From Candidatus Bathyarchaeia archaeon (lineage in GTDB: Archaea > Thermoproteota > Bathyarchaeia > Bathyarchaeales > Bathycorpusculaceae), in NCBI GenBank assembly GCA_049512935.1, contig JBEKWR010000030.1, forward strand, positions 1 to 19,714: 19,714 bases of DNA. Reading direction: 5' to 3'. The first letter of the stretch is position 1. Every line of letters starts with the position of its first letter. Positions 1,881 to 19,714 of the stretch are shown here, piece after piece. The position numbers and the translations under genes were made by a program. Under the pieces are notes generated by a model. The model searched no databases. It saw only the letters and a list, made by a program, of their open reading frames with translations, and was not told the origin of the DNA.

Positions 1881-1881
1881 T

Positions 1882-2763: not shown

Positions 2764-2780
2764 AGCTAATCACGTTAATG

Positions 2781-3491
<711 letters not shown>

Positions 3492-3544
3492 TCACTAATA
3501 TCGTTTGCCGTTCTATACGCCATTCAAAAACGAAGGTGAAAGCA

Positions 3545-5245: not shown

Positions 5246-5303
5246 AAGGCAGCCGCCGTCTAAAACCCGCACTCTTCTCCTACATTTAGGATGGGATTCG
5301 GCA

Positions 5304-5312
5304 TTTATATAA
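5304..5312 (-). promoter_or_regulatory. Putative TATA box of the trmB-CBS gene
   Basis: TTATATAAA on the minus strand with an A-rich stretch upstream, about 60 nt before ATG 5245. Confidence 0.5.
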
Positions 5313-5383
5313 CTAATGTTTTTTTGTAGACTTTTCACCTAGCAATTTGACTACAACTTAAGGCACGTTTGTGACTAAACAGT

Positions 5384-6061
5384 TTAAGTCAGCGTTTTTT
5401 GAATTGAGCCTTTCTCGCTTTTCGCCCTCTTCGCAGGCCTCCAAGACTTCCTCACAAAACTGGGGTATTCATCGTTTTTCTCCAGCAGCCGCCGCAGGAA
5501 AGCCATGGTTTTCTCGTCGGTTAAGTATCCGCTGCCGAAATCGCCGTGCTCCGCCCGCAAAGCCGCGACTTCCCTGTCCCGCTCCACCTTGGCGATGATG
5601 GATGCTGCTGAAACAACAGGGTAGATCCTGTCGGCTTTGTGACGTGAAACGATGCGGGTTTTGACGGTTAGGCATTCACGTATGTGGTTTGCGAAGCGGT
5701 GTTCAACCGTGTCTGCCGCGTCAACGAATACTTCGTCAGGCTTCAAAGCTTCGATGATTTGCGCCATCGTTTGCGCTTCGAGACGGTTTAGTTTGTGTAA
5801 TCGTCTTTCGCTTTCAACTACCTTGTCGATTTCGCTTGGAAGGATTTTTATGGTTTGGTACTTTTCGGTTAACTGCAGGATCGCTGGGTACAATAGCTCC
5901 CGTTTCTGGGGGGTAAGCAGTTTGGAGTCTTTCACGCCGAGCTCGGTAAGGATCGGCAGCGCCTCAGCGTTAACCATGACGCCAGCGACAACTAAAGGGC
6001 CAATAACGCATCCGCGCCCTGCCTCGTCCACGCCAGCAATCAAGGTTTTAGCCAAACGCAT
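5384..6061 (-). CDS. rnhB: Ribonuclease HII
   Basis: AGVDEAGRGCVIGPLVV, GVKDSKLL, VFVDAAD, HKAD..YPVVSAASIIAKVERD, DFGSGY, VRKSW. Start is ATG 6061 or GTG 6064. Confidence 0.97.
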   Translation of the reverse strand: MRLAKTLIAGVDEAGRGCVIGPLVVAGVMVNAEALPILTELGVKDSKLLTPQKRELLYPAILQLTEKYQTIKILPSEIDKVVESERRLHKLNRLEAQTMAQIIEALKPDEVFVDAADTVEHRFANHIRECLTVKTRIVSRHKADRIYPVVSAASIIAKVERDREVAALRAEHGDFGSGYLTDEKTMAFLRRLLEKNDEYPSFVRKSWRPAKRAKSEKGSIQKTLT

Positions 6062-6436
6062 CACTCAACGTTGAATGGCTTTCGTGAAACTAAGCTATAA
6101 CACTTTTCCAAAAGCCGCGCCTGACCCGAGAAAGCATCGCGTTGCTGAACCCCGCCTTTGTGAACCCATATTTGTGTTGGTTTTTTGATGTAAATAGTAG
6201 ACCCCCTCCCCCCTCCCTATCGGGTAGGTCAGGGCTTGATTCATGTTGATTTTTTAGTTTAGAGCCCAAATCAAGCTCAAAAGATTTCATTTTTCCGTGA
6301 AGAAAACAAAGAACTAGCCGAAAAAACAGGTATAAATCCATTGATACCTGAATCCAGATGCCCTATCAAACGGCAGTTCGCTTCAGGCAAGGCTTGTTTC
6401 GGGCTGCATTTTTGATTTGGGTTGTTTTCCTGCCTT

Positions 6437-7135
6437 TTACTTTTTCTGCGCCACAATCATCGCGTGCGCTTTGTCGAAGGGCTCCAAGTTCACAACCTCA
6501 ACTACGTCGAAGCCTCTTTTGCGCAGAATGTTGGCTTCCTGACGGTAAACCGCCTCGGGGTCCATGGTCACGTCGATGCTTTGCGCCTTCACCGCAATCA
6601 TAATCCAGCCTCCCGCCTTCAGGAAAAAGTCCGCGTTGTCAGCCAGCAACTTCGCCTGCTCAGGCTGCGCCACGTCACAGTAAATCGTGTCCACCTTCCC
6701 CGAGATGAACATTGCGTACCGTTCAGGCATGCGCGCGTCTTCAAGAAGCGGCGAAATGTTCGGGCGAAAAGCAGCTACGTTGTTGACTAAGTCGCGGATT
6801 GAACGCTGCGCAAACTCAACGCAGTAAACGTGCCCAGCTTCGCCGACGATGTCTGAAACGTGGCTCGGCGTCGTCCCCGAAGCAGCGCCCAAATAAAGCA
6901 CCTTGCTGCCTGGCTCAATAGGCACGTTCTGCAAGCCCTTGATGATGGCTCCCGCCAGCTTGCTGCGGAAAGCGTCCCAAACGCGGTACTCGACGCCCTT
7001 AAACTTGACCAGCCGTTCCCCGTAAACGTTCAAGCCCGGCGTCAGGTTCTTGGTGGCAAGCCGTTTCGCGCCGTCTTCAAGCGTGACCTCGTAGATTTCC
7101 CTGAACTTCAGGTGCGGCTTAACCCTGACCGGCAC
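6437..7135 (-). CDS. flpA: Fibrillarin-like rRNA/tRNA 2'-O-methyltransferase
   Basis: VYGE, EYRVWDAFRSKLAGAI, VLYLGAASGTTPSHVSDIV, LLEDARMP, CDVAQPEQA, KAQSIDVT, LEPFDKAH. GTG 7135 gives 232 aa (typical size), overlaps the nop5 3' end by 17 nt and has GGAGA just upstream. Confidence 0.96.
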   Translation of the reverse strand: MPVRVKPHLKFREIYEVTLEDGAKRLATKNLTPGLNVYGERLVKFKGVEYRVWDAFRSKLAGAIIKGLQNVPIEPGSKVLYLGAASGTTPSHVSDIVGEAGHVYCVEFAQRSIRDLVNNVAAFRPNISPLLEDARMPERYAMFISGKVDTIYCDVAQPEQAKLLADNADFFLKAGGWIMIAVKAQSIDVTMDPEAVYRQEANILRKRGFDVVEVVNLEPFDKAHAMIVAQKK

Positions 7136-8471
7136 GCCTGTCTCTCCACTGCTTACGCCTGCGCTTCCCTCCGTGAGGAGGTCGTTGATGCGGTTTTTCC
7201 CTGAGTGGATATTCTCCGCCTCCGCCCTCACGCGGCCTAGAAGGATGCTCTCCGCCTTCCCTGCGTTCCCTAAAAGGCTCCTCGCGCCTTTCCATTCTGG
7301 GTTTAGGCTCCTTAGGTGGCGGCGGCTCCTTGTACTTCTCGTGGATTTCGTCCAAGCGCTTGTTTATGTCCGCTTTTAACCTGTCGCCGATGAAGTTGCC
7401 GCCGAAAGCGTCAGCTCTAGCTGCAATGGCTAGTTTCCCAGCGATGACACGCGCGATTTTTCCCCGTTGCCAACGCTTAGCATCATGCAGCAATGTGTGT
7501 TGGAAGATTAACCCGTGTTTTGGCGGTCTCGCACCTGTTTTCAATGAGCGGAAGAGTGCTTTTTCTGCACCTAAAACTTGAATTGTGCTGGCTGGTCGCA
7601 TAGCAAGGTTTCGCAGGCTTCCAGCGATGGCGATCAATCGTGCCCCTAGAAGTGCTCCTGCGACGGCTCGGACGTTGGGCGCCAGCTCCTCCATTGTTCG
7701 GTCAACGTAATTCTCCATGTTCTTGCGCAACTCATAGAATTCGAGCACGTTTCTAGCTAATTCTTGGATCTGATTAAGGTCGAGTTCAGCGATGTCTGCA
7801 CCCATGCTTGATTCTGCTGCTTTCGCAACAAACTGCGCTCGCTCTTTAGGAATGTTCTCTTTCTCCAAAGCTTCGACAGTGTAGTTTTCCCTGTAACCCA
7901 AGTTCATGACTAAGCGTGAGTAGGTTTCGTGTTTCTCGATTAGGCGGTCAAGCTCGGGGAAGTAGACGCCATACCACTCGCGGAGCCTGCCCATGAACAG
8001 GTTGACCGTACGGTCCAGATCATCAAGCGTCTGAATGCCCTGAGCAACGATTAGGTCTCTCTTCTCGACGGCGCCTTTGATTCGCAGTTTTGTGAGTTCC
8101 AAGCTGACGTTTCGGCTCCAGAGGCTAAGCTCCTGCTCATCCCCGATAAAACCCGATTCAACAGCCACCTGGCTCATCAGCGAACGCAAATCTTCAACCT
8201 CAGCGCCCTTGGCAACTTCAACGGTGACATTCATTTTACGGTGGGTTTCATCTGCCACGCTGGCGTTTTCAAAAACAAACGCATCGTAACCCGCGTTTTT
8301 AAGCAGAGTCACCAAAGAGAAGACTTCGTCGGAAAGCTTTCCCGATTCTGTTTTCAGCAAACTTTTTGCGGCTGCCAGAGGTTTCTTCGGAAACAGAACT
8401 TTCTCAACCAAGCCTTTCTTGTCGTCGAAGGCTGCGACGCCGAATGGAAATTGAATTATGAATGCTTTCAT
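7119..8471 (-). CDS. nop5: Nop5 (Nop56/58) C/D box sRNP scaffold protein
   Basis: RDLIVAQGIQTLDDLDRTVNLFMGRLREWYGVYFPEL, SMGAD, APN..AVAGALLGARLIAIAG, PASTIQVLGAEKALFR, PPKHGLIFQH, RGKIAR; directly upstream of fibrillarin. Confidence 0.97.
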   Translation of the reverse strand: MKAFIIQFPFGVAAFDDKKGLVEKVLFPKKPLAAAKSLLKTESGKLSDEVFSLVTLLKNAGYDAFVFENASVADETHRKMNVTVEVAKGAEVEDLRSLMSQVAVESGFIGDEQELSLWSRNVSLELTKLRIKGAVEKRDLIVAQGIQTLDDLDRTVNLFMGRLREWYGVYFPELDRLIEKHETYSRLVMNLGYRENYTVEALEKENIPKERAQFVAKAAESSMGADIAELDLNQIQELARNVLEFYELRKNMENYVDRTMEELAPNVRAVAGALLGARLIAIAGSLRNLAMRPASTIQVLGAEKALFRSLKTGARPPKHGLIFQHTLLHDAKRWQRGKIARVIAGKLAIAARADAFGGNFIGDRLKADINKRLDEIHEKYKEPPPPKEPKPRMERREEPFRERREGGEHPSRPREGGGGEYPLREKPHQRPPHGGKRRRKQWRDRRAGQG

Positions 8472-8735
8472 GTCTTTAAAGCCCCAGTAAACTAAGTACT
8501 GTCAAGAGTTTAACCTAATAAATAATTGTTTTTCATGAAAAACATCTGTTGTACTATATATTGAAATCAAGCATCAGAAACCACTTAGGCGAATCTATTG
8601 ATGAGGAATTGTTTTGAGTAGAAATATCCAATGTTGACATTTGGATTTTGACATACTACGGTTTTAGAAATCTAGTTTATGTTGTTTCACAGCACATAAA
8701 ATTTGGAGCGGACCCACTAAAGAGGGCGCAGAAAA

Positions 8736-9344
8736 ATGCTCGACAAAAACCTGAAAAAACCAATTATTGCAGTGTTCATAGTAGTCTCCATTTTCCTAAC
8801 CCTGTTTTCAGCCAACTTTGTCTCTGCCAGTGGTGGGTCAATTGCGATGGCGAATGCCTATCCAGAAGACGGAGCAACATACGTGGTCGTCGACCATTTC
8901 ATTTATCAAGCCACGGCAGTTAACACTAACACGACTGTTTCAGTAAGCATTGATAATGGGCCACTCATACCTATGGCTTTTCAAGGCATAATAAATGAAG
9001 TGGTCAACAACGATACTGTCGCTCGCGACTGGTACACATGGCAGGTAACAATTCCAGCTATAACGAATCCGGGCAGACACACGTTCCAATTTTTCAGCCA
9101 TTACTATGTTTGGCAAGACACAGACTATTATTGGGAGGAATTTAACGCCCGTTCCACTGCTCAGTCATTCTCTATTGCAGATTCAACTCCGCCGAAATCA
9201 ACCCCGACAACAACACGCCCAGTTCCAGAGTTACAACCCGTTCCAGAGATGCAATCTTGGATGATTTTTCCAATTTTTGCAGTAGCAATAATATTATCAA
9301 TTATATTTTTCAGGAAGAGAATGCCCACCACTAATAAACCCTGA
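8736..9344 (+). CDS. Secreted/surface protein with signal peptide and PEF/PEP-CTERM-like C-terminal anchor
   Basis: Basic n-region plus hydrophobic helix (KKPIIAVFIVVSIFLTLFSANFVSA), beta-rich aromatic middle, Pro/Thr linker, VPELQPVPEMQSW, a TM helix, then RKR. Confidence 0.8.
   Translation: MLDKNLKKPIIAVFIVVSIFLTLFSANFVSASGGSIAMANAYPEDGATYVVVDHFIYQATAVNTNTTVSVSIDNGPLIPMAFQGIINEVVNNDTVARDWYTWQVTIPAITNPGRHTFQFFSHYYVWQDTDYYWEEFNARSTAQSFSIADSTPPKSTPTTTRPVPELQPVPEMQSWMIFPIFAVAIILSIIFFRKRMPTTNKP
9219..9254 (+). repeat. Imperfect 18-bp tandem duplication encoding PVPELQ/PVPEMQ
   Basis: ccagttccagagttacaa followed by cccgttccagagatgcaa. Confidence 0.75.
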
Positions 9345-9527
9345 GCCAACGCTATTTGGGTGGAGAATGTTATCTTCCCTATTTGTTATCATGCGAGGCA
9401 GACACTAGATGATATAAGGTGTAAGGTAGCAAATGAGATTTTTTCCCCGGCAATTCAGTTTGTTCTCATAGCTCGGGCGGACTTTTCATGGATGTGGCTT
9501 TTTGCTGAAGGTTCCGTGAGCCTTTCT

Positions 9528-9728
9528 CTATTTTATATATTCAACGGTGCGCTTGTGATATCTTTTGCATTCTTTGACGATTTTTCCCGTGAATTGTGGC
9601 GGAACGAATGTGCCTAGGCTTGCAAGCAAAGCAAGTTCCGATCTTTGATCCTGACGTACCTCAGTGTATTCAGGGCATCCAACGCACTGGTCGGGGAACT
9701 CATTGAAGCACGCATATTGTACTTCCAA
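9528..9728 (-). CDS. Small Cys-containing hypothetical protein (66 aa)
   Basis: TTG start preceded by GGGGGAAG and an upstream TTAAATA; four Cys including CVGC. No homology recognised. Confidence 0.45.
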   Translation of the reverse strand: MEVQYACFNEFPDQCVGCPEYTEVRQDQRSELALLASLGTFVPPQFTGKIVKECKRYHKRTVEYIK

Positions 9729-9870
9729 CTTACTTCCCCCATAATAACTAAACCTGTTTAAGTATTTAACAGATTTCTATATTCCATACAATACAATGTT
9801 AGCCATCAGCCGCATAACCACTTATTCTTTTCTCAAAGTTCATTAATCGCGCTTTTTCCTTACGACTGCG

Positions 9871-10272
9871 TTAACCTTGTTTCTGGGGGGTTACCTGCCC
9901 TTGAATGTTTTGCCCTCTGAGGTTAGTTGCACAGTAAGGACAGAAATTGTTCTCTGGGGAAGCTGGTTTGTTGCAAGAGGGGCAGTTTTTCGCTGCGGCG
10001 GCCGCGGGTTTTGTTTGGCTTGTTGTTTGCAGGTATCTTTTGCTGTCTCGGTACAGTTTCTTGTAGAAGCTTTGTTCCCGCTCACATTGGAGCCTGCACA
10101 GCCATGAGACTGGGAAAGCAAACATCAGCGTCGCAGTCAGCATCAAGTCTGGGGGCTGGTTGAACCACGAGAAGGCTAACATCATCAGTATTCCCATGGG
10201 CACGTACGGTAAACCCAGACAAGCCTTGGCTAACCAACCCGCCTTCCTAAATCCCTTAATCAACCTGTTCAT
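9871..10272 (-). CDS. Membrane protein with C-terminal zinc ribbon
   Basis: Two hydrophobic segments, then CPSC-x7-NFCPYC; ATGA overlap with the upstream ORF. Confidence 0.75.
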   Translation of the reverse strand: MNRLIKGFRKAGWLAKACLGLPYVPMGILMMLAFSWFNQPPDLMLTATLMFAFPVSWLCRLQCEREQSFYKKLYRDSKRYLQTTSQTKPAAAAAKNCPSCNKPASPENNFCPYCATNLRGQNIQGQVTPQKQG

Positions 10273-10538
10273 GGGCTTATGCCTCCCGTTGGGGTGCTTG
10301 CTTTTTCACTCTCGACGGCTCCTTCTTGCTTCTCGGGTTTATGCAGGGATATGAATATGCCCATGATGATTGTTCCGGCGCCTAAAATGAGGAATAGTGG
10401 TGGCGCGAGTCCACTGTTCATTGAGTAAACATTTACGACTAAGCCCCAGACAGCCGAGCCGCTGAGGAGAATTCCGAGCAGGATAATGGCTATTCCGCCG
10501 AGTATGTAGTCCTGACGCTCTTCCTTCCAATCTGACAT
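10269..10538 (-). CDS. Small two-TM membrane protein
   Basis: Two hydrophobic helices. ATG 10538 (MSDWKEE) follows a G-rich SD-like sequence. The 4-nt stop/start overlap with the downstream gene suggests translational coupling. Confidence 0.65.
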   Translation of the reverse strand: MSDWKEERQDYILGGIAIILLGILLSGSAVWGLVVNVYSMNSGLAPPLFLILGAGTIIMGIFISLHKPEKQEGAVESEKASTPTGGISP

Positions 10539-10759
10539 TCCCTTGGAATCCCCTTTCCCGCGCACTAAGTCAACTAAATGAGCAGATGAACATTTTAAAA
10601 TTTGCGTTTAATTAGAAATTCTTTTTGCATTCTGCGCGGCTTTACTGGCGGACGGTTGGCTCGTAGATTACTAATCCATTCTCCTCTTTCACTATTAAGT
10701 TATAGTCCTCGGATATTCGGCGTATTTTCTAAACGGTAACGGCACAAAAAAATGTTCTT

Positions 10760-11164
10760 TCAGCTGGACACATCGGTGCCGAGTTCTTTTTTGAGGCTTT
10801 TTTCAGAGAAAAAGAGCAGCGCAGCAACTACACCGAGCACCACGGCGGCTGCGACCGACAAGAATGGAATAATGTTGATCGATGTTGTGGCGTTTGAAGG
10901 AACCGTCGTTGGAGCCGCTATGGGCGGCGCAGCGGAGGTGGGGGCGGGCGTTGCCGTGGTGTATGACCCAGCTGAGGAGCTGGAAGTTCCTGGGGTAACG
11001 TTGGAGTATTTTTGAGACGGGGTTGGGGTTAACGCGGCTGAGGGCTTGTTTTGAAGCGCGACTTGGCTTGAAACGGGCAGGTAGCTTACGGCGGCTGCAA
11101 GCGACAGGACTAACGCGACTGCGAGAATGGGCGCTATCAACATTTTCTTGTTCAGTAAGCTCAC
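10760..11164 (-). CDS. Membrane-anchored Ser/Thr/Pro-rich protein
   Basis: N-terminal KK plus hydrophobic helix, about 65 aa of low-complexity S/T/P/A sequence with NVT and NAT sequons, C-terminal TM helix and charged tail. Confidence 0.75.
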   Translation of the reverse strand: MSLLNKKMLIAPILAVALVLSLAAAVSYLPVSSQVALQNKPSAALTPTPSQKYSNVTPGTSSSSAGSYTTATPAPTSAAPPIAAPTTVPSNATTSINIIPFLSVAAAVVLGVVAALLFFSEKSLKKELGTDVSS

Positions 11165-11192
11165 AACCGTAAACTGTACTTTTCTTTTCCCA

Positions 11193-11217
11193 AAATAAAC
11201 GGTGTGAACCGTTATTT
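11193..11217. promoter_or_regulatory. Imperfect palindrome in a divergent promoter region, candidate operator
   Basis: aaata-AACGGT-gtga-ACCGTT-attt, adjacent to AT-rich TATA-like sequence. Confidence 0.45.
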
Positions 11218-11321
11218 AATGTTATATTTTAGGCTGAGTGTTCTAACCTTTCGTACGGCGGTTTCAGCGTTTTTTGGGGTAGGTCTTAAATTGCAGCCTG
11301 TGCCTTTGTTTGGGTTTGTGG

Positions 11322-11750
11322 ATGGCTTTGGCTGCAGACGAACCCAAAGAAGTGCTGAGGGGAACAACACTTGAAGTTTACCGTTTCCTGCTGAAAAGCA
11401 ACAAGCCAGTCGGAACGCGGGAACTGCAGAGAGCACTCAACCTGAGCAGCCCGTCAGTGGCAACGTACCACCTCTCCAAGCTGGAAGATGCTGGATTGCT
11501 GAAGCGGGAGGGCGGCGGCTTCACAGTCAGCAAGTACCTCCTGGAAAACAGCGTCAAGGTCAACCGTTTCCTGATTCCAAGGTTCTTCTTCTACGCAGTA
11601 TTCGCAGTCGCAGCGCTCGCCGTGGAGTTGACGCTTATGATGCCCGCGGTTTTGACGCGTGAATACGCGTTCTCCGTGGCTGTGACAGCCGTGCTGGCGT
11701 TGTTCTGCACTTATGAAACAGTCAAAACATGGCTAAGAGGCAACCTGTAA
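11322..11750 (+). CDS. Membrane-anchored winged-HTH transcriptional regulator
   Basis: TLEVYRFLLKSNKPVGTRELQRALNLSSPSVATYHLSKLEDAGLL (wHTH) followed by two hydrophobic helices. Start uncertain (11310, 11322 or 11328). Confidence 0.85.
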   Translation: MALAADEPKEVLRGTTLEVYRFLLKSNKPVGTRELQRALNLSSPSVATYHLSKLEDAGLLKREGGGFTVSKYLLENSVKVNRFLIPRFFFYAVFAVAALAVELTLMMPAVLTREYAFSVAVTAVLALFCTYETVKTWLRGNL

Positions 11751-11785
11751 ATCCCCACTTTTGCCAAACGCAATTCTCGTCGAGG

Positions 11786-12304
11786 TCAGGTGCCTAAACT
11801 TGGGGCGGCTGCGTTACCCGACGTGAACGTTGAATCATCGATGTAAGGGTAAGCGTAAATTTTCCCCAAAAAGAAGCCGGAGCTGCAGTAGATCAATCGT
11901 TTGTTTTTTCTTTCCCACCGCCAATAAACCAGCGCTCTTGTCAAGAAAGCTGCTGCGGGAAATGGGTAAATGAAGTCGACGGCGATCGCGACTGTTTGAA
12001 GAGGCAAGGTTGAGACAGCCCAGATGACAAGCCCAATGCCGATAACTGCTAAGCCTATGATGGTAAGCAAGTAGCCAAGAGTCACCGAATAAACCCCCTT
12101 CTTTTCGATAATTCGAAGCGTTCCCTCCGCCCATTTACTGAACGCAAATACCCCAACGAAGATGCCTATAATCGTTGCGAAGCCCGCAAAAATGAGGTTG
12201 ATATGAAAAATTGACCGATAGTAATAAGTCAAATTGTACATGCCGAGTTGGAACAAGGCTAAAAGTGACCACAACACGCCCAAGAGGATGTCAAATGGGA
12301 TCAT
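11786..12304 (-). CDS. Hypothetical integral membrane protein (about 4 TM)
   Basis: Four hydrophobic segments followed by WRWERKNKR. ATG 12304 (MIPFD) is preferred to the longer track start. Confidence 0.7.
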   Translation of the reverse strand: MIPFDILLGVLWSLLALFQLGMYNLTYYYRSIFHINLIFAGFATIIGIFVGVFAFSKWAEGTLRIIEKKGVYSVTLGYLLTIIGLAVIGIGLVIWAVSTLPLQTVAIAVDFIYPFPAAAFLTRALVYWRWERKNKRLIYCSSGFFLGKIYAYPYIDDSTFTSGNAAAPSLGT

Positions 12305-12463
12305 TCTGTAATTCAAAGTTACCGGTAACCTGCAAACTGCATTTAGATGCGTTAGGGATTTATGTTTTTCCCATACAGACTCCGGGCTAAGAAGCAATCT
12401 GTAGGATGTACACAAGCGTATTATTCAAATGAACGCTTACACATAGTCGATATAGTGGTTAAT

Positions 12464-12679
12464 TTGGTTAAGACCATCAGAATTAAAGACGAAACATACA
12501 GAAAGCTTCTGTCCTTTAAAAGAAATGATGAAAGCTTCAGCGAACTTCTTGAGCGTCTAACCGAAAAGAATTCTACCGCGAAAATCCTGAAGAAAATCAG
12601 AGGAACCGTTGAATTCGGTGAGGGAGAAAAGGAAGATATTCTTTTTGAGATACGTTCCAAAAGGGCGATTAAGCTTTAA
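12464..12679 (+). CDS. Archaeal VapB-type antitoxin (DUF217/COG1753-like)
   Basis: KTIRIKDETYRKLLSFKRNDESFSELLERL matches the KTIxIxDExYxxL...ESFSxxxxRL pattern. Start is TTG 12464 or GTG 12455. Confidence 0.82.
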   Translation: MVKTIRIKDETYRKLLSFKRNDESFSELLERLTEKNSTAKILKKIRGTVEFGEGEKEDILFEIRSKRAIKL

Positions 12680-12910
12680 GGCTTATTTTTGAAAACGGAT
12701 AGGATTGTTACAAGCAACTGTTCCTTGCGCGAGATTAGGTTGAGACTCTTTCTTAGCTCCTACATTTTTACTTTTCCTGCTGCAACCACCCCGAATGAAA
12801 CTTGCGAAAGAAAACTCCGAAATCACCGATATTTTGAATCCTTAGTTAACTTTAAACGCTGGCGTTGACAATAAGAGTGGCACCGATTTGGGACTGTTGG
12901 GGAAGGGTTT

Positions 12911-15130
12911 ATGGTTAATCAGCCTCCGCTTCGCGCACGCGGCGTCAAAGTGCTTAAAGCTGTTTCTTCACCGCTTAGGCTGCAAATCCTTAACCTTCTC
13001 TTCGACCGAAGCGCCCTCAGCTACACGGAACTCATGAACGCCCTAAAAATGAACCCAAGCCGAGACGCAGGCAGATTTGCTTATCACCTAAAGTTCATGT
13101 TGAAGGCGGAGTTGGTGGAAGCGGATGTTGAAGCAAAAAAGTATTACCTTACCGACCTCGGCAAGATGGTTCTTGACGTGGCGGACCGCGTCGAGGCGAA
13201 GGCTGTTAAGCCCAGAGGCATGGTGGTTCGCACTTCGCATTTGACGCTGGAAGAATTCGACGCCAACAAAATCGCGAACTCGCTTATCAAGGAGGCTAAG
13301 GTGCCTGCTGAGTTGGCGCAGAAGGCGGCTAAGGAAGCTGAAAAACGCCTGGTTAAGTCTAAAACGAAGTATCTTACCGCCGCGTTGATCAGGGAGGTGG
13401 TGAACGGCATCCTGATTGAGAAGGGCTACGAGGAGTACCGTCACAAACTCACCCGCGTCGGCATGCCTGTTCACGAGGTCACCGCTCTGATCGAAGCGAA
13501 AGATCAGCCTGTAGACTCGGCAGCCATAGTGACGACGGCGGGGCAGACGTTGCTAGGCGAGTACACGCTGCTTAACATTTTCCCAAGAGACATCGCCGAC
13601 GCTCACCTTTCAGGCGCAATTCACATCGACGGTTTAGGCACATGGATAATAAAACCCAACGAGGTCAACCATGACCTAAGGTTTTTCCTGCAAAATGGGA
13701 TTAAACTTGAAAATCCAATGCAAGCCTCGATGGAGCCGCCCTGCGATTTTGAGTCAGCGTTAGCCGTCGCACTGAATGTTTTGTTGCACGCTGGCAAAGA
13801 AGTCAACAGAACCCAGACGTACGGTTACTTCAACGTTTTTTTGGCGCCGTACGCGAGGGGTGTTGAAGCGGCGCGGCTCAAGGAAAACCTGCGCTTATTC
13901 ATTTTAAGCGTCAATCAGCAAACTGAGGCTACGTTGACGCTTCAGCTTTCCCTTCCGAAGTCAGCCGCTGAAAAGGAAGCGGTGGGTCCCGGCGGAAAAG
14001 TCTGCGGCAGATACTTGGATTTCGCGGTGGAGTGCCAGCAGCTGGCCCAATTGGTGATTGAAGTTTTTATTGAGGAGTGCGCTAAGAAGCCGCTGCTTAA
14101 CCCCAAGCTGATTGTCAGAGTCAGCAAGGATACGTTTACGGATGAAGCCGCAAAGAGCCTGCTCTATAAAGCTCACCAGCTTGCAGCTGAAAAAGGAACG
14201 CCTTACTTCGCCGCGGCAACGGGGAAAGAGACTGAAAACGCCTTTTTCTCATCTACGGGAATGAGGCTTGCCGCTGACTTGACAGGCGAATGGGAGACTG
14301 ACACGTTGCGTACGGGCTGCCTCGGCTGCGTGAGTCTTAACTTGCCGAGAATCGTGTTGGAGTGCGAGAAGGACAAGAACAAGTTTTTCGACCTGATTCA
14401 GGAACGGTTCGAGCTTGCCGCCCGCGCCTTGGGAATAAAAAGCAGCGTGCTCAAGCAGTTTGGCAAAAACTCCCTGCCTTTTCTGTTGAGGAACGGCACT
14501 GGCGACGTTTACTTCAGGCTTGAAAACAGCTCGCGCATCATCAATTTGGCTGGGTTCCGAGAAGCCGTGGAAGCCTTCACTGAGAAAGATGTTAACTCTG
14601 AGGAGGCACGCGGCTTCAGCGAAGAAACCGTCAAAGCGGTTTTGTCGTTTAAGCAGAAGATCGGCAGAAAATACGGTAAACGCTTGTACCCCGTGGTTCT
14701 TGGCGACTTGGAAGCCGCTGAAAGGCTTGCGCAGCTTGACATCGACAAGTATGGTGTGGCTAAAGTCAAGTTTTCAGGGACAAGAGAGAAACCGTACTAT
14801 TCAGGCACGCGAAGGTTCCAGGTCAAGACCGCAGGTGAAATCCTGTCATTGCCGACGGAGCAGTTGGAGACTGCTAAGAAGATGAAGGGGTTAACCGCTG
14901 GGGGATCCTTAGACGTCTTCGAGTTGGAAGGCACCGACCTTAAGGCTGAAGCGTTGATGGATTTGACGAGGCGCGTGGTTGAAAATCAATCCTCCGAGTT
15001 CTTCACGTACAACCGCTCGGTCAGCTACTGCGACAACTGCAAGAAAAGCTGGTTCGGAACACTGCATAAATGCCCATGCTGCGGCTCAATGAGCGCACTG
15101 GCAACGTTCGACCGCTTCGCTTCAACGTAA
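12911..15130 (+). CDS. ArsR-type HTH / ATP-cone / NrdD-like fusion, predicted catalytically inactive class III RNR homologue
   Basis: Residues 1-100 are an ArsR-like wHTH (VLKAVSSPLRLQILNLL...LSYTELM...FAYHLKFM...YYLTDLG). Residues ~104-175 are an ATP-cone (VVRTS..LEEFDANKIANSLIKE...LTAALIREVVNGILIEKG). The NrdD core follows (IADAHLSGAIHI, HDLRFF, FNVFLAPY, PKL, KGTPYF, VSLNLPRI, PYYS, AGG) with a Zn site CDNC-x10-CPCC. There is no RxxGY motif. Confidence 0.88.
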   Translation: MVNQPPLRARGVKVLKAVSSPLRLQILNLLFDRSALSYTELMNALKMNPSRDAGRFAYHLKFMLKAELVEADVEAKKYYLTDLGKMVLDVADRVEAKAVKPRGMVVRTSHLTLEEFDANKIANSLIKEAKVPAELAQKAAKEAEKRLVKSKTKYLTAALIREVVNGILIEKGYEEYRHKLTRVGMPVHEVTALIEAKDQPVDSAAIVTTAGQTLLGEYTLLNIFPRDIADAHLSGAIHIDGLGTWIIKPNEVNHDLRFFLQNGIKLENPMQASMEPPCDFESALAVALNVLLHAGKEVNRTQTYGYFNVFLAPYARGVEAARLKENLRLFILSVNQQTEATLTLQLSLPKSAAEKEAVGPGGKVCGRYLDFAVECQQLAQLVIEVFIEECAKKPLLNPKLIVRVSKDTFTDEAAKSLLYKAHQLAAEKGTPYFAAATGKETENAFFSSTGMRLAADLTGEWETDTLRTGCLGCVSLNLPRIVLECEKDKNKFFDLIQERFELAARALGIKSSVLKQFGKNSLPFLLRNGTGDVYFRLENSSRIINLAGFREAVEAFTEKDVNSEEARGFSEETVKAVLSFKQKIGRKYGKRLYPVVLGDLEAAERLAQLDIDKYGVAKVKFSGTREKPYYSGTRRFQVKTAGEILSLPTEQLETAKKMKGLTAGGSLDVFELEGTDLKAEALMDLTRRVVENQSSEFFTYNRSVSYCDNCKKSWFGTLHKCPCCGSMSALATFDRFAST

Positions 15131-15134
15131 AAGC

Positions 15135-16055
<921 letters not shown>

Positions 16056-16196
16056 TTAATGGGCACACCTGAAACCAAGAGTGCTCTTTACTGCTAAATA
16101 TAATTTCCCTTTAGCGACGGGCTATTTTCACGCCGCGGGGTTTTGTCCCGAAATTAAATGTTCAAATAACCTGTCGGGCAGTAGCTCTTGGGATAA

Positions 16197-16530
16197 TTGT
16201 TGGTTGATTATCTGGTCGGGACAGGCGGATGGGCTTACTTTAACATCCCGAACAAGCCCGCGCTAAAAGCGTACAGTGAAATATTCAGTTTTATGGAAGT
16301 AAACAGTACTACAGGTACAGCGGCGAGGAATTGGATGGCTGGGTTCCGAAGGTTTTGGAAACGGCGAAAGATGAGAAGAAGGTCTACGGGTTCTTCAACA
16401 ATCACTATCGCGGTTACGCCCCAGAAAATTGTCTTCAGCTTATAGAAAGTTAGGGTTAATGACTGAAAAGCAGAAGAAAGCAAAAGTCAAAAACGCAGTT
16501 AAACAGTCTCAGTTAGGCACATTCTTTTAG
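16197..16530 (+). pseudogene. DUF72 (YecE-like) pseudogene with a large internal deletion and a frameshift
   Basis: The N-terminus (YLVGTGGWAY...LKAYSEIFSFMEVNST) is joined out of frame at about 16308 to the C-terminus (YRYSGEELDGWVPKV...VYGFFNNHYRGYAPENCLQLIE). After a second frameshift near 16447 it reads LGLMTEKQKKAKVKNAVKQSQLGTFF*. Confidence 0.88.
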
Positions 16531-16684
16531 GCGAAAAGACAAGAAAAATGCTTGCCGCTTACTCTTCTTCTGCTAGTTAGAGCTTATATGCTTTTGTTGT
16601 TGTACAATGATTGCAACACAGTTTTAATAGCAACAAGTTAGCACTACATATTCAAGCGAAAAATCAATTTTAAAGGCGTTTTTT

Positions 16685-16882
16685 ATGGAATCAATCTTGG
16701 AAAAAATAAATAAAAGAGAAAAGCCAAAAGAAATTTTCAGTACCCGAGATTACATGCCAAGAGTGTACGAGGTTAGGTCGCCGTGTCAGTGGCTGGAGCA
16801 TTGCTATGGTGGCAAGTGCCCCGCGTTCATGAAAATCAACGGGAATTTTTACTGCGCGCGAGCAAAACAAATCCATAGCTAA
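16685..16882 (+). CDS. Small Cys-rich hypothetical protein (65 aa)
   Basis: ATG start in an otherwise unoccupied AT-rich interval; C-x5-C-x4-C-x11-C pattern. Confidence 0.5.
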   Translation: MESILEKINKREKPKEIFSTRDYMPRVYEVRSPCQWLEHCYGGKCPAFMKINGNFYCARAKQIHS

Positions 16883-16957
16883 GACAGCCAACTCTCTTTT
16901 TCGGAACGGCAACAGCGGGTTTCTCTGCGCAAAAGAAAAATGCACAGGTAAGCAGCG

Positions 16958-17869
16958 TCAGCCTTTCAACATGGCTAATGCTTCTTTAACCACGGCAACC
17001 GACTTTCCGAAACGCTCCTTTGACCGAGCGGATAATTCAAGCTCAATTATCTTTTCCACGCCCCCTTTTCCTAGCACAACTGGCGCGCCGATTGAAACAT
17101 CGGAGGCTCCGTATTCCCCGTCAAGGCAAGTTGACACGCTCATTACCCTGTTTCTGCCCGTTAAAATCGCGTCAGCTGTTGTGGCGATTACGGCGCCGGG
17201 AGCGTAGATTGTTGAGCCTTTAAGCTTGATGACGTCTGCGCCGGAAGTCACGGTTAAATGGACGATTTTTTCAATCTGAGTTTCCGTCAGAAAGTTTGTT
17301 ATGGGGACGCCTGAAACGGCGGCATACTCAACCAGCGGAACCATCGAGTCGCCGTGTTCCCCAATCACCAAGGCACTGGTGTCTTCTCTGGATACGTTCA
17401 GTTCATCTGCTATGTAGGTTCTGAACCGCATCGTGTCAAGGATGTTGCCCATGCCGAAAAGCCGGGTGCGCGGGAAACTCGATTCTTGGAAGGCAACGTA
17501 GGTCATTATGTCAACGGGGTTTGTGACAATCATAAGTTTACAATCAGGCGCGTACCTGACAACTTCCCTGACGACCGACCGCATGACCCCTGCGTTCGTA
17601 TTCATCAAGTCAATACGGGTCATGTCAGGTCTTCTGCCGAGCCCAGCCGTCATGATGACAAGCTCGGAGCCACGCATCGCCGCATAATCGCTGGTTCCTG
17701 TGATTTTGCCGTCGAACTCGATGGCGGGCGCAGCCTGCATCATGTCCAACGCTTCCCCCTTCGCTTGGCTTTCGTTAGAGTCAATGAGGACTACGTCGCT
17801 GATTTTGTACCGTAAAATCTCAAACGCCGCTGTGCTTCCCACTTTCCCAGCGCCAATAACAGTTATCAT
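16958..17869 (-). CDS. mdh: Malate dehydrogenase (LDH-like family)
   Basis: VIGAGKVG Rossmann motif, GEALD, TAGLGRRPDMTRIDL (Arg at the specificity position, so MDH rather than LDH), VTNPVD, LDTMRF, GEHGDSM. Confidence 0.93.
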   Translation of the reverse strand: MITVIGAGKVGSTAAFEILRYKISDVVLIDSNESQAKGEALDMMQAAPAIEFDGKITGTSDYAAMRGSELVIMTAGLGRRPDMTRIDLMNTNAGVMRSVVREVVRYAPDCKLMIVTNPVDIMTYVAFQESSFPRTRLFGMGNILDTMRFRTYIADELNVSREDTSALVIGEHGDSMVPLVEYAAVSGVPITNFLTETQIEKIVHLTVTSGADVIKLKGSTIYAPGAVIATTADAILTGRNRVMSVSTCLDGEYGASDVSIGAPVVLGKGGVEKIIELELSARSKERFGKSVAVVKEALAMLKG

Positions 17870-17891
17870 ACTTTAAACATGATTAGAGGCT

Positions 17892-17900
17892 AAGATATAA
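17892..17900 (-). promoter_or_regulatory. Putative TATA box of mdh (probably a leaderless transcript)
   Basis: TTATATCTT on the minus strand, 23-31 nt upstream of ATG 17869; no SD sequence. Confidence 0.5.
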
Positions 17901-18010
17901 CCCGCACGCTCAAAAGAAAACTTGGCAAATTGTGCATTGAAAAATTTTCCGTTCTTAAGGGTGGCGGCTTCTTTCTTTGTGTTGTCAAAGCGAACGTGAA
18001 GTTTTTTGAT

Positions 18011-18466
18011 TTACTTCACTATTATTACTGTGCATGGTGCGGAGTGCGCCACTTGCGCGCTTACGCTGCCCAAGAAACGTTCGCTCATCCTGCCTAACCC
18101 GCGGTGCCCGACAACAATGACGTTGAAACCCTCCTTAGCGGTGTCAACAATTTCAATAGCGGCATCCCCCTCCTTAGTCAGAGCGGAAACCTTCACGCGA
18201 GGATTAACCTCTCTTGCGTGAGCAACGTACCTGTTTATCATCTCTTTTTGAATTATCATCAAATCCTTAGCAACCACGGCGGTACTGCTGCCTCCCGTCG
18301 GATACGTAACCGTTTCAGGAGGCACCGCTCCCATCACCACCGATTCAGCAACATTCAGGATGGCGAGAGATGCGCCGAATTTTTCCGCGAAATCCAACGC
18401 GAAATCAAGCGCTCGTTCAGAGTTTTCAGATCCGTCCACACCGACCAAAACATTAGTGATTGACAT
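18011..18466 (-). CDS. Universal stress protein (UspA family)
   Basis: NVLVGVDGSENSERAL, GDAAIEIV, IVVGHRGLG...FLGSVSAQVAHSAPCTVIIVK (ATP-binding G-2x-G-9x-GS type). GAGGT precedes ATG 18466. Confidence 0.95.
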   Translation of the reverse strand: MSITNVLVGVDGSENSERALDFALDFAEKFGASLAILNVAESVVMGAVPPETVTYPTGGSSTAVVAKDLMIIQKEMINRYVAHAREVNPRVKVSALTKEGDAAIEIVDTAKEGFNVIVVGHRGLGRMSERFLGSVSAQVAHSAPCTVIIVK

Positions 18467-18649
18467 GGGAAACCTCAAAAGCTAATTCTTTAAATAGCCA
18501 TTAAACCTTTCCCCGACGAAAAACGGCGCGGCACCAAAAGTTCAGTTCGCTCGGAGGAAAATTTCCGTCTGTTTCCACCGATTTATTTAAGAAATATAAG
18601 CATAAAGTGCTAATTAATACGTTAGAGCATTACGCGGAGGGGATCGCCA

Positions 18650-19714
18650 ATAAATAAGCATCTAAAAGTCACAGTAGCCATGCTTATTGTGGCAGTGATG
18701 GTTTTGCCAGCCCTCTACTTGCCGCGTGCTCAAGCCCAAGGAAGCCAAAACCAAAACTCGTGGACTTCACTGGCGTCCATGCCTACCGCTCGGGGCGGAC
18801 TCGGCGTCGTTGCGGTCAACGGGAGAATCTACGCGATCGGAGGCTTAAGCGGCAATTCACCTCTTAACGTTAACGAAATGTACACGCCAGGCACGAACCA
18901 GTGGGCAACCGAGGCGCCGATGCCGACGGCTAGAAGCGGCTTCGCAATTGCGGTTTATAACGGCAAGATTTACTGCATAGGCGGTACCGTTGGCACCAAC
19001 GAGTACGTTGGAAACAACGAGGTTTATGACCCAGCGTCGAACACTTGGCAAACGATGGCTTCCATGCCTACGCCCAGAGCCGACTTGAGCGCGTTCGTGG
19101 TTAACGGCAAAATCTACCTGATCGGCGGAATGCAGTATTCGGGTGCAAGTCCATTTTACGTTGAGACGGGCGTAAACGAGGTTTATGACCCATCCACGAA
19201 CAGTTGGAGCACCGCCGCGTCCATGCCGGCGGCTGCTTACGGCTACGCTTCGGCGATAATGAACGGGGAAATCTACGTTGTCGGAGGCTCCAAGAGCCCT
19301 GGAACCGAGGGAACCGGGGACTTTATCAATTCAAATCAAGTGTACAACCCCCAAACCAACAGTTGGGTTTTCGCCGCGAATTTTCCCTCTTTCGCATCTT
19401 ACGGAGCCGCAGGGGCAACAGACGGGTTTATGGCTCCTCCGCTGCTGTATTTCGTCGGCGGATTCTACCTCGATTCCTTCAGCAACACCATGGAAGTGTA
19501 CAACGCGGGCAACAACTCATGGAGCAAAGGAGCGTCAATGCCTACTGCACGGGCGTACCTAGGCGTAGCCGTTGTAAACGATGTTTTGTACGCGATCGGC
19601 GGGTTTGACGGCACAAACTGGCTGAGCACAGTTGAGCAGTACACGCCTATCGGTTATGGCACGGCTCCGCCGCTGATTCAAGTTACCTCGCCTGGCAACC
19701 AGACTTACGCTAAG
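18650..19714 (+). CDS. Secreted Kelch-repeat beta-propeller protein, 3' end outside the window
   Basis: Missing from the ORF track because there is no stop. Manual translation gives a signal peptide ending AQA, then six Kelch repeats (SWTSLASMPTARGGLGVVAVNGRIYAIGG ... NEVYDP..N.W ... SMPTARAYLGVAVVNDVLYAIGG), then PPLIQVTSPGNQTY, probably the start of an Ig-like domain. Start is ATA 18650 or ATG 18680. Confidence 0.92.
   Translation, partial: MNKHLKVTVAMLIVAVMVLPALYLPRAQAQGSQNQNSWTSLASMPTARGGLGVVAVNGRIYAIGGLSGNSPLNVNEMYTPGTNQWATEAPMPTARSGFAIAVYNGKIYCIGGTVGTNEYVGNNEVYDPASNTWQTMASMPTPRADLSAFVVNGKIYLIGGMQYSGASPFYVETGVNEVYDPSTNSWSTAASMPAAAYGYASAIMNGEIYVVGGSKSPGTEGTGDFINSNQVYNPQTNSWVFAANFPSFASYGAAGATDGFMAPPLLYFVGGFYLDSFSNTMEVYNAGNNSWSKGASMPTARAYLGVAVVNDVLYAIGGFDGTNWLSTVEQYTPIGYGTAPPLIQVTSPGNQTYAK

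Follow-up and report, generated by a model that had tools for sequence, protein, structure and literature searches.

We analysed contig JBEKWR010000030.1 of a Candidatus Bathyarchaeia archaeon genome (assembly GCA_049512935.1) over 19,714 nt (positions 1 to 19,714 of the forward strand, referred to as "the window"). The window codes for a 739-residue protein which is related to NrdD, the catalytic subunit of class III (anaerobic) ribonucleotide reductase (RNR), but is headed by a winged helix-turn-helix (wHTH) domain of the ArsR type. Judged by sequence comparison, the protein is a non-catalytic NrdD paralogue; its radical machinery has been lost in the whole family and not by decay in a single strain. 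We propose, with a probability of about 0.65, that it is a dimeric, nucleotide-sensing transcription factor for RNR genes which resembles NrdR in the way it works; DNA binding, ligand and operator are putative. In many related archaea, the gene has a working RNR gene as its neighbour, so the protein is probably a switch that tunes the supply of DNA precursors.

Domain architecture and loss of the radical machinery

The gene is an uninterrupted open reading frame (ORF) of 739 codons (protein P0001). Its ArsR-like wHTH is matched by two Pfam models, both above their cut-off (DUF7347, 31.9 bits; HTH_5, 28.1 bits with a cut-off of 22), and the N-terminal 90 residues also match HTH_20. The NCBIfam model for an ArsR subfamily (NF033788) stays below its cut-off (31.1 versus 55). 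Among PDB sequences, the domain has weak matches to the ArsR/SmtB members PagR and HlyU (E about 0.006). The ATP-cone (PF03477) scores 30.0 bits with a cut-off of 25.8. The Pfam domain NRDD is assigned with 207.5 bits (E 4.9e-61). The NCBIfam equivalog model for NrdD (TIGR02487) reaches 225.8 bits, which is below its cut-off of 326.35; for comparison, the genome's own NrdD scores 571 bits and an NrdD encoded next to a family member in another genome (locus L129) scores 556 bits. In the NCBIfam scan, the 739-residue protein had no match to NrdR (TIGR00244).

A structure model was built with AlphaFold2 (AF2) from 62 family members (predicted local distance difference test (pLDDT) 91.8; predicted template modelling score (pTM) 0.83). 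According to Foldseek, its best matches are class III RNRs, namely those from Streptococcus thermophilus, Prevotella copri, Thermotoga maritima and phage T4 (9d3x, E 3.6e-26; TM-score per target length of 0.76 for both 1hk8 from T4 and 4con from T. maritima). Pfam and Foldseek thus agree on a barrel that is homologous to class III NrdD's alpha/beta barrel of 10 strands. The Cys4 zinc ribbon, which is typical of the NrdD C-terminus, is also present, and HTH_5 identifies the wHTH as being of the ArsR type. The same four-part architecture had been proposed in an earlier sequence-only reading, for which a model had seen just the DNA and its translated ORFs; the ORF, Pfam, AF2 and Foldseek all agree with it. 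The residues named there (E251, S447-S-T-G-M451-R-L, C707/C710/C721/C724 and the terminal R735-F-A-S-T) are all numbered correctly, as seen from translation and alignment.

According to the accessible part of PMC4493059, Cys79 of T4 NrdD is the cysteine of the reductive half-reaction, and the finger-loop cysteine is conserved in RNRs. Both are missing here. The HMMER alignment places E251 (in PNEVNHDL) at the position of T4 Cys79, and MAFFT places STGMRL under SMCCRL and IMGCRT of the two canonical NrdDs from the same genome. Upon alignment to these two paralogues, the protein ends 15 residues past the last zinc cysteine and has no RxxGY motif. The canonical paralogues have about 45 further residues and continue through RVVGY or RVSGY. 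Since the protein stops where these continue, its glycyl-radical domain has been cut off and not mutated in place. A loss at three separate sites had been claimed in the sequence-only reading. This is correct for all three sites, while the assumed substitution within the glycyl-radical motif turned out to be a truncation. Its statement that no other frame restores the motif holds, as RxxG[YFW] does not occur without a stop in any frame of 15040-15400. It also holds that no activase gene is nearby: the contig has no NrdG-like match. One caveat has to be dropped, however. NrdDs of the Thermotoga type had been thought to lack the finger-loop cysteine, which would leave the missing glycine as the decisive loss. 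The T. maritima enzyme has SCCR in its sequence, and this cysteine is merely not pre-positioned in the crystal (PMC4493059, accessible part). Because the sequence keeps SCCR, the missing cysteine pair weighs as much as the missing glycine.

A search of 5.8 billion proteins yielded a close set, which consists of the query and 119 other clusters at 73-87% identity. Nearly all of these relatives have 737-739 residues, and 116 of the 119 have all four Pfam domains (three lack HTH_5, and one of these also lacks DUF7347). The C-terminus ...CPxCGSMSxLxTFDRFxST is common to 118 of them; the remaining one (P0105) is shortened, probably by a contig end. RxxGY at the expected position is not found in any of the 120 sequences, and the sole RxxG[YFW] string within the last 60 residues of the close relatives is N-terminal to the zinc ribbon. 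The CCCC zinc site is present in 119 of the 120, the exception being the truncated sequence. The sequence-only reading had suggested checking homologues for loss of the catalytic glycine and cysteines; the close relatives share the losses, and the glycyl-radical domain is lacking in 118 of the 119 (one being truncated).

More distant relatives were collected from a library clustered at 50% identity, in which 1639 proteins match at E <= 0.001. For alignment A2, 53 of 150 representatives were excluded, being shorter than 560 or longer than 800 residues. Alignment A3 contains the query and 61 near-full-length representatives with 24-43% identity to it. A row was kept if 70 or more of its residues fell into the wHTH columns and if its zinc site was complete, and rows with two ATP-cones were removed. 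As a complete zinc site was required, the invariance of the zinc cysteines in A3 is due to this choice of rows. None of the 62 sequences has a cysteine at the T4 Cys79 position (250-252), and only five have any cysteine among the seven finger-loop residues. The loop tip is hypervariable (57 different four-residue words across the 62 representatives). RxxGY C-terminal to the zinc ribbon is found twice (P0143 and P0169), and both proteins lack a cysteine at the aligned finger-loop tip. A tail of 30-59 residues which resembles the radical domain is found in 30 of the 62, and 28 of these 30 lack RxxGY there (P0169 is one exception). The features of the gene and its surroundings are listed in Table 1.

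Table 1. Features of the NrdD-like gene and of its surroundings in the window.
Feature	Position	Strand	Basis
Whole gene: wHTH, ATP-cone, NrdD-like barrel and zinc ribbon	12911..15130	+	ORF, Pfam/NCBIfam, AF2, Foldseek
ArsR-like wHTH, residues 14-89; putative recognition helix with family motif DAG[KR]FAYHL[KR]	12950..13177	+	DUF7347, HTH_5
ATP-cone, residues 104-176	13220..13438	+	PF03477
NrdD-like alpha/beta barrel, residues 213-731	13547..15103	+	NRDD, Foldseek
Codon for E251, aligned with Cys79 of T4 NrdD	13661..13663	+	HMMER alignment to 1h78
Helices predicted to form the symmetric interface of the homodimer, residues 264-293 and 325-337	13700..13921	+	Two-copy fold
Finger-loop tip S447-S-T-G-M-R-L453, replacing the SCCR/MGCR thiyl-radical motif	14249..14269	+	Alignments A1, A2
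Cys4 zinc ribbon, C707, C710, C721, C724	15029..15082	+	Translation
15-residue tail GSMSALATFDRFAST and stop, at the place of the canonical glycyl-radical domain	15083..15130	+	Alignment to the genome's NrdDs
Promoter element TTAGTTAACTTTAAAC, putative B recognition element (BRE)/TATA, ~55 nt 5' of ATG	12842..12857	+	Orthologue upstream regions
pyrB (aspartate carbamoyltransferase), convergent	15135..16055	-	TIGR00670, 385 bits (cut-off 237)

Family conservation, distribution and gene order

Invariant residues in the 62 representatives are L30, H59, Y78 and G84 in the wHTH, and V106, R107, I121, L125, E128, I160, R161 and L168 in the ATP-cone. Mean column conservation is highest for the ATP-cone (0.665), with 0.546 for the wHTH and 0.37 for the barrel. 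Within the barrel, N477 of the NLPR motif is invariant in 100 of 100 aligned sequences, and D230, H232 and G235 are nearly so. Several positions of the cone which we take to be nucleotide contacts are kept (R107, E114, K120, T156 and I160). Ratios of nonsynonymous to synonymous substitution (dN/dS) were computed by the Nei-Gojobori method (NG86) for orthologues from species genomes. Eighteen pairs were evaluated, out of 374 with unsaturated dS (3081 pairs in total). The whole gene has values of 0.08-0.29; the domains taken singly have 0.015-0.20 (wHTH), 0.04-0.20 (cone) and 0.11-0.31 (barrel). The gene is kept by purifying selection in all of its domains. Together with the family-wide losses, this bears out the view that it is a maintained, non-catalytic NrdD paralogue.

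A FastTree tree was computed from the cone and the barrel only (103 rows). All 64 rows with a wHTH fall into one group of 82 leaves, which contains no canonical sequence; its remaining 18 members are additional wHTH forms or N-terminally shorter sequences. Support is 98 at the node which adds the N-terminally short P0236, and just 26 at the common-ancestor node itself. As judged from this tree, the wHTH-bearing forms are a single clade. The nearest canonical enzymes (with both cysteines and RITGY) include the nrdD product from L129, which shares the unusual cone start V-R-T-S. Canonical relatives with a long N-terminus have a second ATP-cone instead of the wHTH. The family may have originated by duplication of a neighbouring nrdD that had the same VRTS cone.

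A separate observation concerns eight NrdD-like proteins (P0194, P0199, P0233, P0271, P0269, P0211, P0252 and P0218). They have ATP-cone matches (two stretches in seven of them, one in P0233) and lack the wHTH, the aligned finger-loop cysteine and RxxGY. These eight branch among the canonical enzymes. They might be another type of NrdD without catalytic function; alternatively, their sequences may be incomplete.

Names attached to the relatives are Bathyarchaeia/Bathyarchaeota and Nitrososphaerales. The proteins are widely annotated as "anaerobic ribonucleoside-triphosphate reductase", and some as "ArsR family transcriptional regulator". The former annotation wrongly implies a class III RNR, and with it anaerobic DNA-precursor synthesis, in aerobic ammonia oxidisers. 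When one genome per species is considered, there are at least 598 matching stretches. Nearly all of the best 80 carry the label Bathyarchaeia; three have the label Nitrososphaerota and one has Methanocella. With a distant member as the query, 34 loci were retrieved, one of them labelled Bathyarchaeia. The other 33 carry the labels Nitrososphaerales, Nitrosopumilales, Nitrososphaeraceae, Nitrososphaera sp., Thaumarchaeota or, less exactly, Thermoproteota or "archaeon".

The phylum was sampled by an even set of 201 genomes, and 164 of them match the family profile at E <= 1e-20. The full-length wHTH form is found in at least 91 genomes, and a shorter form, consisting of wHTH, cone and the start of the barrel, in at least 24 more. 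Overall, at least 115 of the 201 genomes have a wHTH-bearing form, counted among the matches listed as those that start within the wHTH; as 145 further family-profile matches exist in the sample, these counts are lower bounds. Several families with complete genomes of about 2 Mb have no member at all. In one family of the Nitrososphaeria (f9), the wHTH protein is the sole NrdD-family profile match in 24 of 26 genomes. NrdR (TIGR00244) exceeds its cut-off in nine of the 201 genomes, and all nine belong to the family of the window's genome (f1). It was not found in the other 192 sampled genomes, including the 26 of f9. All nine f1 genomes, that of the window included, have both NrdR and the wHTH-NrdD-like protein. 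Across the phylum sample, the two are nearly complementary. The accessible parts of PMC9110341 and PMC12176259 describe NrdR as rare in archaea. As a side observation, most f9 matches were reported with 1-3 stop codons "inside", even though frames of about 700 codons are open and the ORFs of L097-L101 are intact. Here, the profile probably runs beyond a shorter C-terminus.

In the window, the stop codons of the gene and of the convergent pyrB are 4 nt apart, as had been stated in the sequence-only reading; the pyrB assignment was confirmed by TIGR00670. Convergent pyrB is directly 3' of the gene in 75 of the 80 closest Bathyarchaeia loci, and the other neighbours vary. Seven further Bathyarchaeia loci (L127, L129, L130, L133, L134, L135 and L136) have a canonical nrdD between the gene and convergent pyrB. 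All seven nrdD genes code for RITGY or RVTGY, and four (L129, L130, L133 and L134) have the finger-loop pattern SQCCR. L138 has the order regulator, NrdD-like gene, nrdG and convergent pyrB, and in L137 the RNR slot is occupied by a second NrdD-like gene which also lacks the glycine. In L101, a locus of the Nitrososphaeria, the regulator is followed by nrdJ (TIGR02504, 695 bits) and then by convergent pyrB with a divergent ORF of 152 residues, a putative pyrI.

Among the Nitrososphaeria, a same-strand nrdJ is directly 3' of the gene in 17 of the 34 loci, which corresponds to 17 of the 22 loci that have at least 800 nt downstream; the remaining 12 loci stop within 600 nt 3' of the gene. In the complete genomes of f9, the single PF02867 gene adjoins the regulator in five of five cases (in four it is on the same strand and downstream, in one it is divergent), and these genomes have no further NrdD homologue. 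A regulator-like gene in front of an RNR gene of either class is in a position which is typical of a dedicated regulator. Since the regulator-RNR-pyrB triad exists elsewhere, the pyrB neighbour in the window can be interpreted as a remnant that was left when the RNR gene was lost.

Two details of these loci are reported separately. In L135 and L136, a small ORF with CxxC, which resembles glutaredoxin/NrdH, was read from the intergenic sequence between regulator and nrdD; this hints at a thiol reductant for the NrdDs of these loci. In the Nitrososphaeraceae, eight contigs from different assemblies (L107, L109-L113, L115 and L116) stop 325-542 nt 3' of the regulator. Probably, the regulator is followed by hard-to-assemble sequence, perhaps an RNR gene which is repeated or contains an intein.

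Proposed function and alternative explanations

Class III RNRs bind their specificity effector at the dimer interface. For the window protein, a two-copy fold of residues 203-700 predicts a symmetric interface (Table 1) with a score of 0.58, versus 0.00 for the best of three controls. Contact agreement between runs is at least 66%, and the partner has a pLDDT of at least 86. The mark set for this score is reached by 20 of 30 solved homo-pairs and by one of 23 single chains. As solved NrdD dimers exist, the prediction may show only likeness to these.

We propose that the barrel would keep the NrdD homodimer and so bring together two ArsR-like wHTH domains, one at each N-terminus, which would bind DNA as a pair. 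The ATP-cone, and possibly also the old effector site at the dimer interface, would bind ATP/dATP or dNTPs. In NrdD from S. thermophilus, the position of the cones with ATP differs markedly from that with dATP (PMC12662201, accessible part). A ligand might likewise shift the cone of the regulator together with the attached wHTH. Such a movement would switch DNA binding at RNR promoters, and probably also at its own promoter, so that the dNTP/NTP pool would be coupled to RNR expression.

A DNA-binding regulator had already been suspected in the sequence-only reading. This is supported, at the level of sequence and gene context, by the single wHTH clade, by the adjacency to RNR genes of two classes and by the scarcity of NrdR where the family is common. 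Its description as an analogue of NrdR stands in part: NrdR is not found where the family is common, but the window's genome has an nrdR-nrdD-nrdG operon of its own. It is tempting to go further, although we hold what follows only tentatively and give it somewhat less than an even chance. The family might be the native master regulator of deoxyribonucleotide synthesis across much of the Thermoproteota, namely in Bathyarchaeia and in Nitrososphaeria with their ammonia oxidisers, and a whole dead RNR would serve as transcription factor. Its cone could sense the ratio of ATP to dATP, its retained effector site at the dimer interface could sense the balance of dNTPs, and it might have stayed at its locus while a class III RNR was exchanged for a class II enzyme.

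Several observations weigh against the proposed regulator of RNR genes. No RNR gene is adjacent in any of the 80 close loci of the window's lineage; with the adjacent RNR gene gone, regulation of the present target must occur in trans. Among the 22 Nitrososphaeria loci whose flank is long enough, five have no nrdJ next to the gene. The window's family also has NrdR beside nrdD-nrdG, and because its genome has nrdR-nrdD-nrdG and a second nrdG-nrdD pair, the protein does not simply take the place of an absent NrdR. Its ATP-cone has diverged (30 bits, versus 93 and 76 for the cones of the genome's NrdD and NrdR). The lysine before the conserved arginine, which we take to be a consensus motif of ATP-cones (K-R in the genome's NrdD), is a valine here; the same valine is found in the active enzyme encoded next to the family member in L129. 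In the wHTH clade of 82 leaves, 12 have no complete zinc site by manual count, so the ribbon is missing in some sub-lineages. Purifying selection on the barrel exceeds what a mere scaffold might need, and the barrel may do more than dimerise.

The operator searches weigh against it as well. A candidate element (TACAGAATTTTATACAG...CTAAAAA) was found once per locus, as a loose pattern, upstream of nrdD or nrdH-nrdD in six Bathyarchaeia tandem loci. A version with two half-sites has a best match with 4 mismatches in 18 positions in the window's genome, and a position weight matrix of the element fails to single out the nrdJ upstream regions of 16 Nitrososphaeria loci. The conserved 38-nt stretch 5' of nrdD in the six tandem loci may represent no more than the core promoter. 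In ten Nitrososphaeria loci, the upstream regions of regulator and nrdJ do not share more 6-, 7- or 8-mers than were obtained in 200 shuffles.

One alternative is a DNA-binding regulator with a target other than RNR genes (pyrB/pyrI, or nucleotide metabolism or replication more broadly), or one that works independently of nucleotides, with the barrel being only a dimerisation scaffold. The most constant neighbour is pyrB, directly in 75 of 80 loci and, in other lineages, on the far side of the RNR gene; in the window's lineage, purifying selection acts on the gene in spite of there being no RNR gene next to it; and the motif searches did not demonstrate an RNR-linked operator. However, the direct neighbour that is co-directional or divergent is an RNR gene wherever one is present. 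As pyrB is always convergent, it shares no promoter with the regulator, and a protein that senses no ligand would hardly be expected to have the ATP-cone as its best-conserved domain. We consider this explanation unlikely, though it is the strongest competitor of a nucleotide-sensing regulator of RNR genes. About half as much credit is given to a regulatory or scaffolding partner that acts on an active RNR by protein contact, for example in NrdD heterodimers, and for which the wHTH would be secondary. The NrdD dimer interface, as predicted, is apparently kept, the gene is in tandem with a closely related nrdD in seven Bathyarchaeia loci, and other NrdD-like sequences without finger-loop cysteine, RxxGY and wHTH exist (with two ATP-cone matches in seven of eight). 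Against this stand the high conservation of wHTH residues, which are among the most conserved, and the 24 of 26 f9 genomes in which the protein is the sole NrdD-family match. The neighbouring RNR is the class II enzyme NrdJ in the five f9 genomes examined. The sequence-only reading had offered a partner of an active NrdD as its alternative; as a general role, this does not fit the f9 genomes.

The protein might also still be an enzyme, or otherwise process nucleotides, with a non-radical chemistry in the old active site and the wHTH as a tether to DNA. This would agree with the selection on the barrel (dN/dS 0.11-0.31), with the invariance of N477 in NLPR (100 of 100 aligned sequences) and with the near-invariance of D230, H232 and G235. 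It is at odds with the loss of both catalytic cysteine positions and of the radical site, with a finger-loop tip that is free to vary (57 words in 62 sequences) and with the short family forms, which retain wHTH and cone but lack much of the barrel. No known chemistry fits, and we rate a retained enzyme marginally below the partner by protein contact. Finally, strain-specific decay of an nrdD gene, or an artefact of assembly or gene calling, has nothing in its favour apart from P0105, which is shortened at a probable contig end. It is ruled out by the same length and C-terminus in 118 of 119 relatives from many assemblies, by the at least 598 matching stretches and by dN/dS values well below 1, and its probability is close to nil.

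Other genes of the genome and known systems

The assembly is 93% complete, and no large subunit of a class I or class II RNR was found in it. The sequence-only reading had suggested looking for a separate nrdD-nrdG or nrdJ in the same genome, and there are two canonical nrdD genes with activases. One is part of an operon of bacterial style (L001, contig 14; nrdR 3585-4028, nrdD 1459-3585 and nrdG 765-1442, all on the minus strand). Its NrdR scores 152.9 bits for TIGR00244 (cut-off 124.65), and its NrdG2 scores 181 bits. As NrdR is confined to one family in the 201-genome sample, a recent acquisition of nrdR-nrdD-nrdG is suggested. We infer that the window's family acquired these genes and retained the old regulator for a target in trans. 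Its old locus is without nrdD, as is also seen in some other Bathyarchaeia lines. Upstream of the nrdR operon are the half-sites TATAGTGT and CACTATA, which resemble NrdR boxes when compared to what we take to be their consensus.

The second pair (L002, contig 2) consists of nrdG (3185-3631) and nrdD (1471-3210), both on the minus strand. This NrdD is short (579 residues) and has no ATP-cone match in a genome-wide scan; IMGCRT and RVSGY are present, and the activase, its own, is small. An ORF with a P-loop-like GMDGVGKTT was seen by eye after the pair. The pair may be of mobile or viral origin. A fourth ATP-cone heads a 280-residue protein (L087, contig 5, 1492-2334, plus strand), the remainder of which has a faint match to YraN (nuclease-like). 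This would be another case of an ATP-cone with a non-RNR partner attached to it.

TTTAAA is found in 64 of 74 upstream regions of orthologues and, when these are anchored on it, flanks similar to TAGTTAA[GC]TTTAAAC are common. The element at 12842-12857 would be the promoter of the regulator gene. Because the extended motif has only this one occurrence in the window's genome, no regulon can be read from it. Inverted and direct repeats in 12400-12920 are represented by weak pairs only. A conserved GCTAGCCGACAGCCCC 5' of the regulator in L065-L083, distant loci of a Bathyarchaeia sub-lineage, was considered as a regulatory site and was rejected: in L078, it is the end of a divergent gene for tRNA-Pro(CGG) (5801-5877, minus strand).

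Two ORFs upstream of the gene in the window are mentioned as side observations. A small ORF (12362-12679, plus strand) is located between an upstream membrane-protein gene and the regulator promoter. It has a weak match below the cut-off to PRK13696, a "hypothetical protein" (33 bits), and its N-terminus KTIRIKDETYRKLL resembles, by eye, ribbon-helix-helix antitoxin-like proteins. The other (11310-11750, plus strand) codes for 146 residues, with weak matches to an ArsR/Lrs14-like wHTH followed by hydrophobic stretches, and is possibly a membrane-anchored regulator. Its place beside the gene is conserved in no loci but the closest three (L004, L041 and L046).

A fusion of wHTH and NrdD, or a non-catalytic NrdD, was not found described in the full-text literature (subscription journals and supplements were outside the scope), and no report was found there of an RNR catalytic subunit that is reused as a regulator. 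In the accessible part of PMC9669993, the terms HTH, helix-turn-helix, DNA-binding, transcription and inactive do not occur, and that of PMC6593220 mentions ribonucleotide reductase only with respect to its abundance. What is probably new is a type of ATP-cone-based RNR regulator for which an entire dead reductase was used and which many Bathyarchaeia and Nitrososphaeria have. For the transcriptional control of RNR in archaea, the family provides a concrete and widespread candidate. In the Nitrososphaeria, a class with cultured ammonia oxidisers, the gene adjoins the only RNR gene, which makes the proposal directly testable. If true, this would be a clear case of an essential radical enzyme that has been recycled as a whole into a sensor. 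It would also be a natural experiment on the roles that RNR barrel, cone and effector site have after catalysis was removed.

The closest counterpart in its presumed logic is NrdR, which senses ATP/dATP and controls RNR transcription. Both would combine a DNA-binding module with an ATP-cone, and in other lineages the gene of the wHTH-NrdD-like protein is beside RNR genes. They differ in that NrdR has an N-terminal zinc ribbon, while the protein described here has an ArsR-like wHTH, about 740 residues and a dead barrel with a C-terminal zinc ribbon. Outside the cone, the two are not homologous, and NrdR boxes are not known for the wHTH-NrdD-like protein.

ArsR proteins are stand-alone dimers of about 100-120 residues which sense metals or the redox state. 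The wHTH is shared with the ArsR/SmtB family, and its recognition-helix motif is of the ...YHL[KR]xL type. Instead of being a small stand-alone dimer, however, it heads a nucleotide-enzyme scaffold of 739 residues.

In ROK-family repressors, PutA, BirA and PyrR, the fold of an enzyme has become the sensing part of a regulator that acts on the enzyme's own pathway. The likeness to these is one of principle.

Active class III NrdDs with ATP-cones (those from T4, T. maritima, P. copri and S. thermophilus) differ by having a glycyl-radical domain (RxxGY is missing in 60 of the 62 distant family representatives), the cysteine of SCCR/MGCR and Cys79, and by having no N-terminal wHTH. The family protein is below the equivalog cut-off and lacks four features that define NrdD. 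It shares with the active enzymes the barrel, the ATP-cone, the zinc ribbon and the predicted dimer interface. The closest canonical relatives also share the VRTS cone and, in some genomes, adjoin a member of the family.

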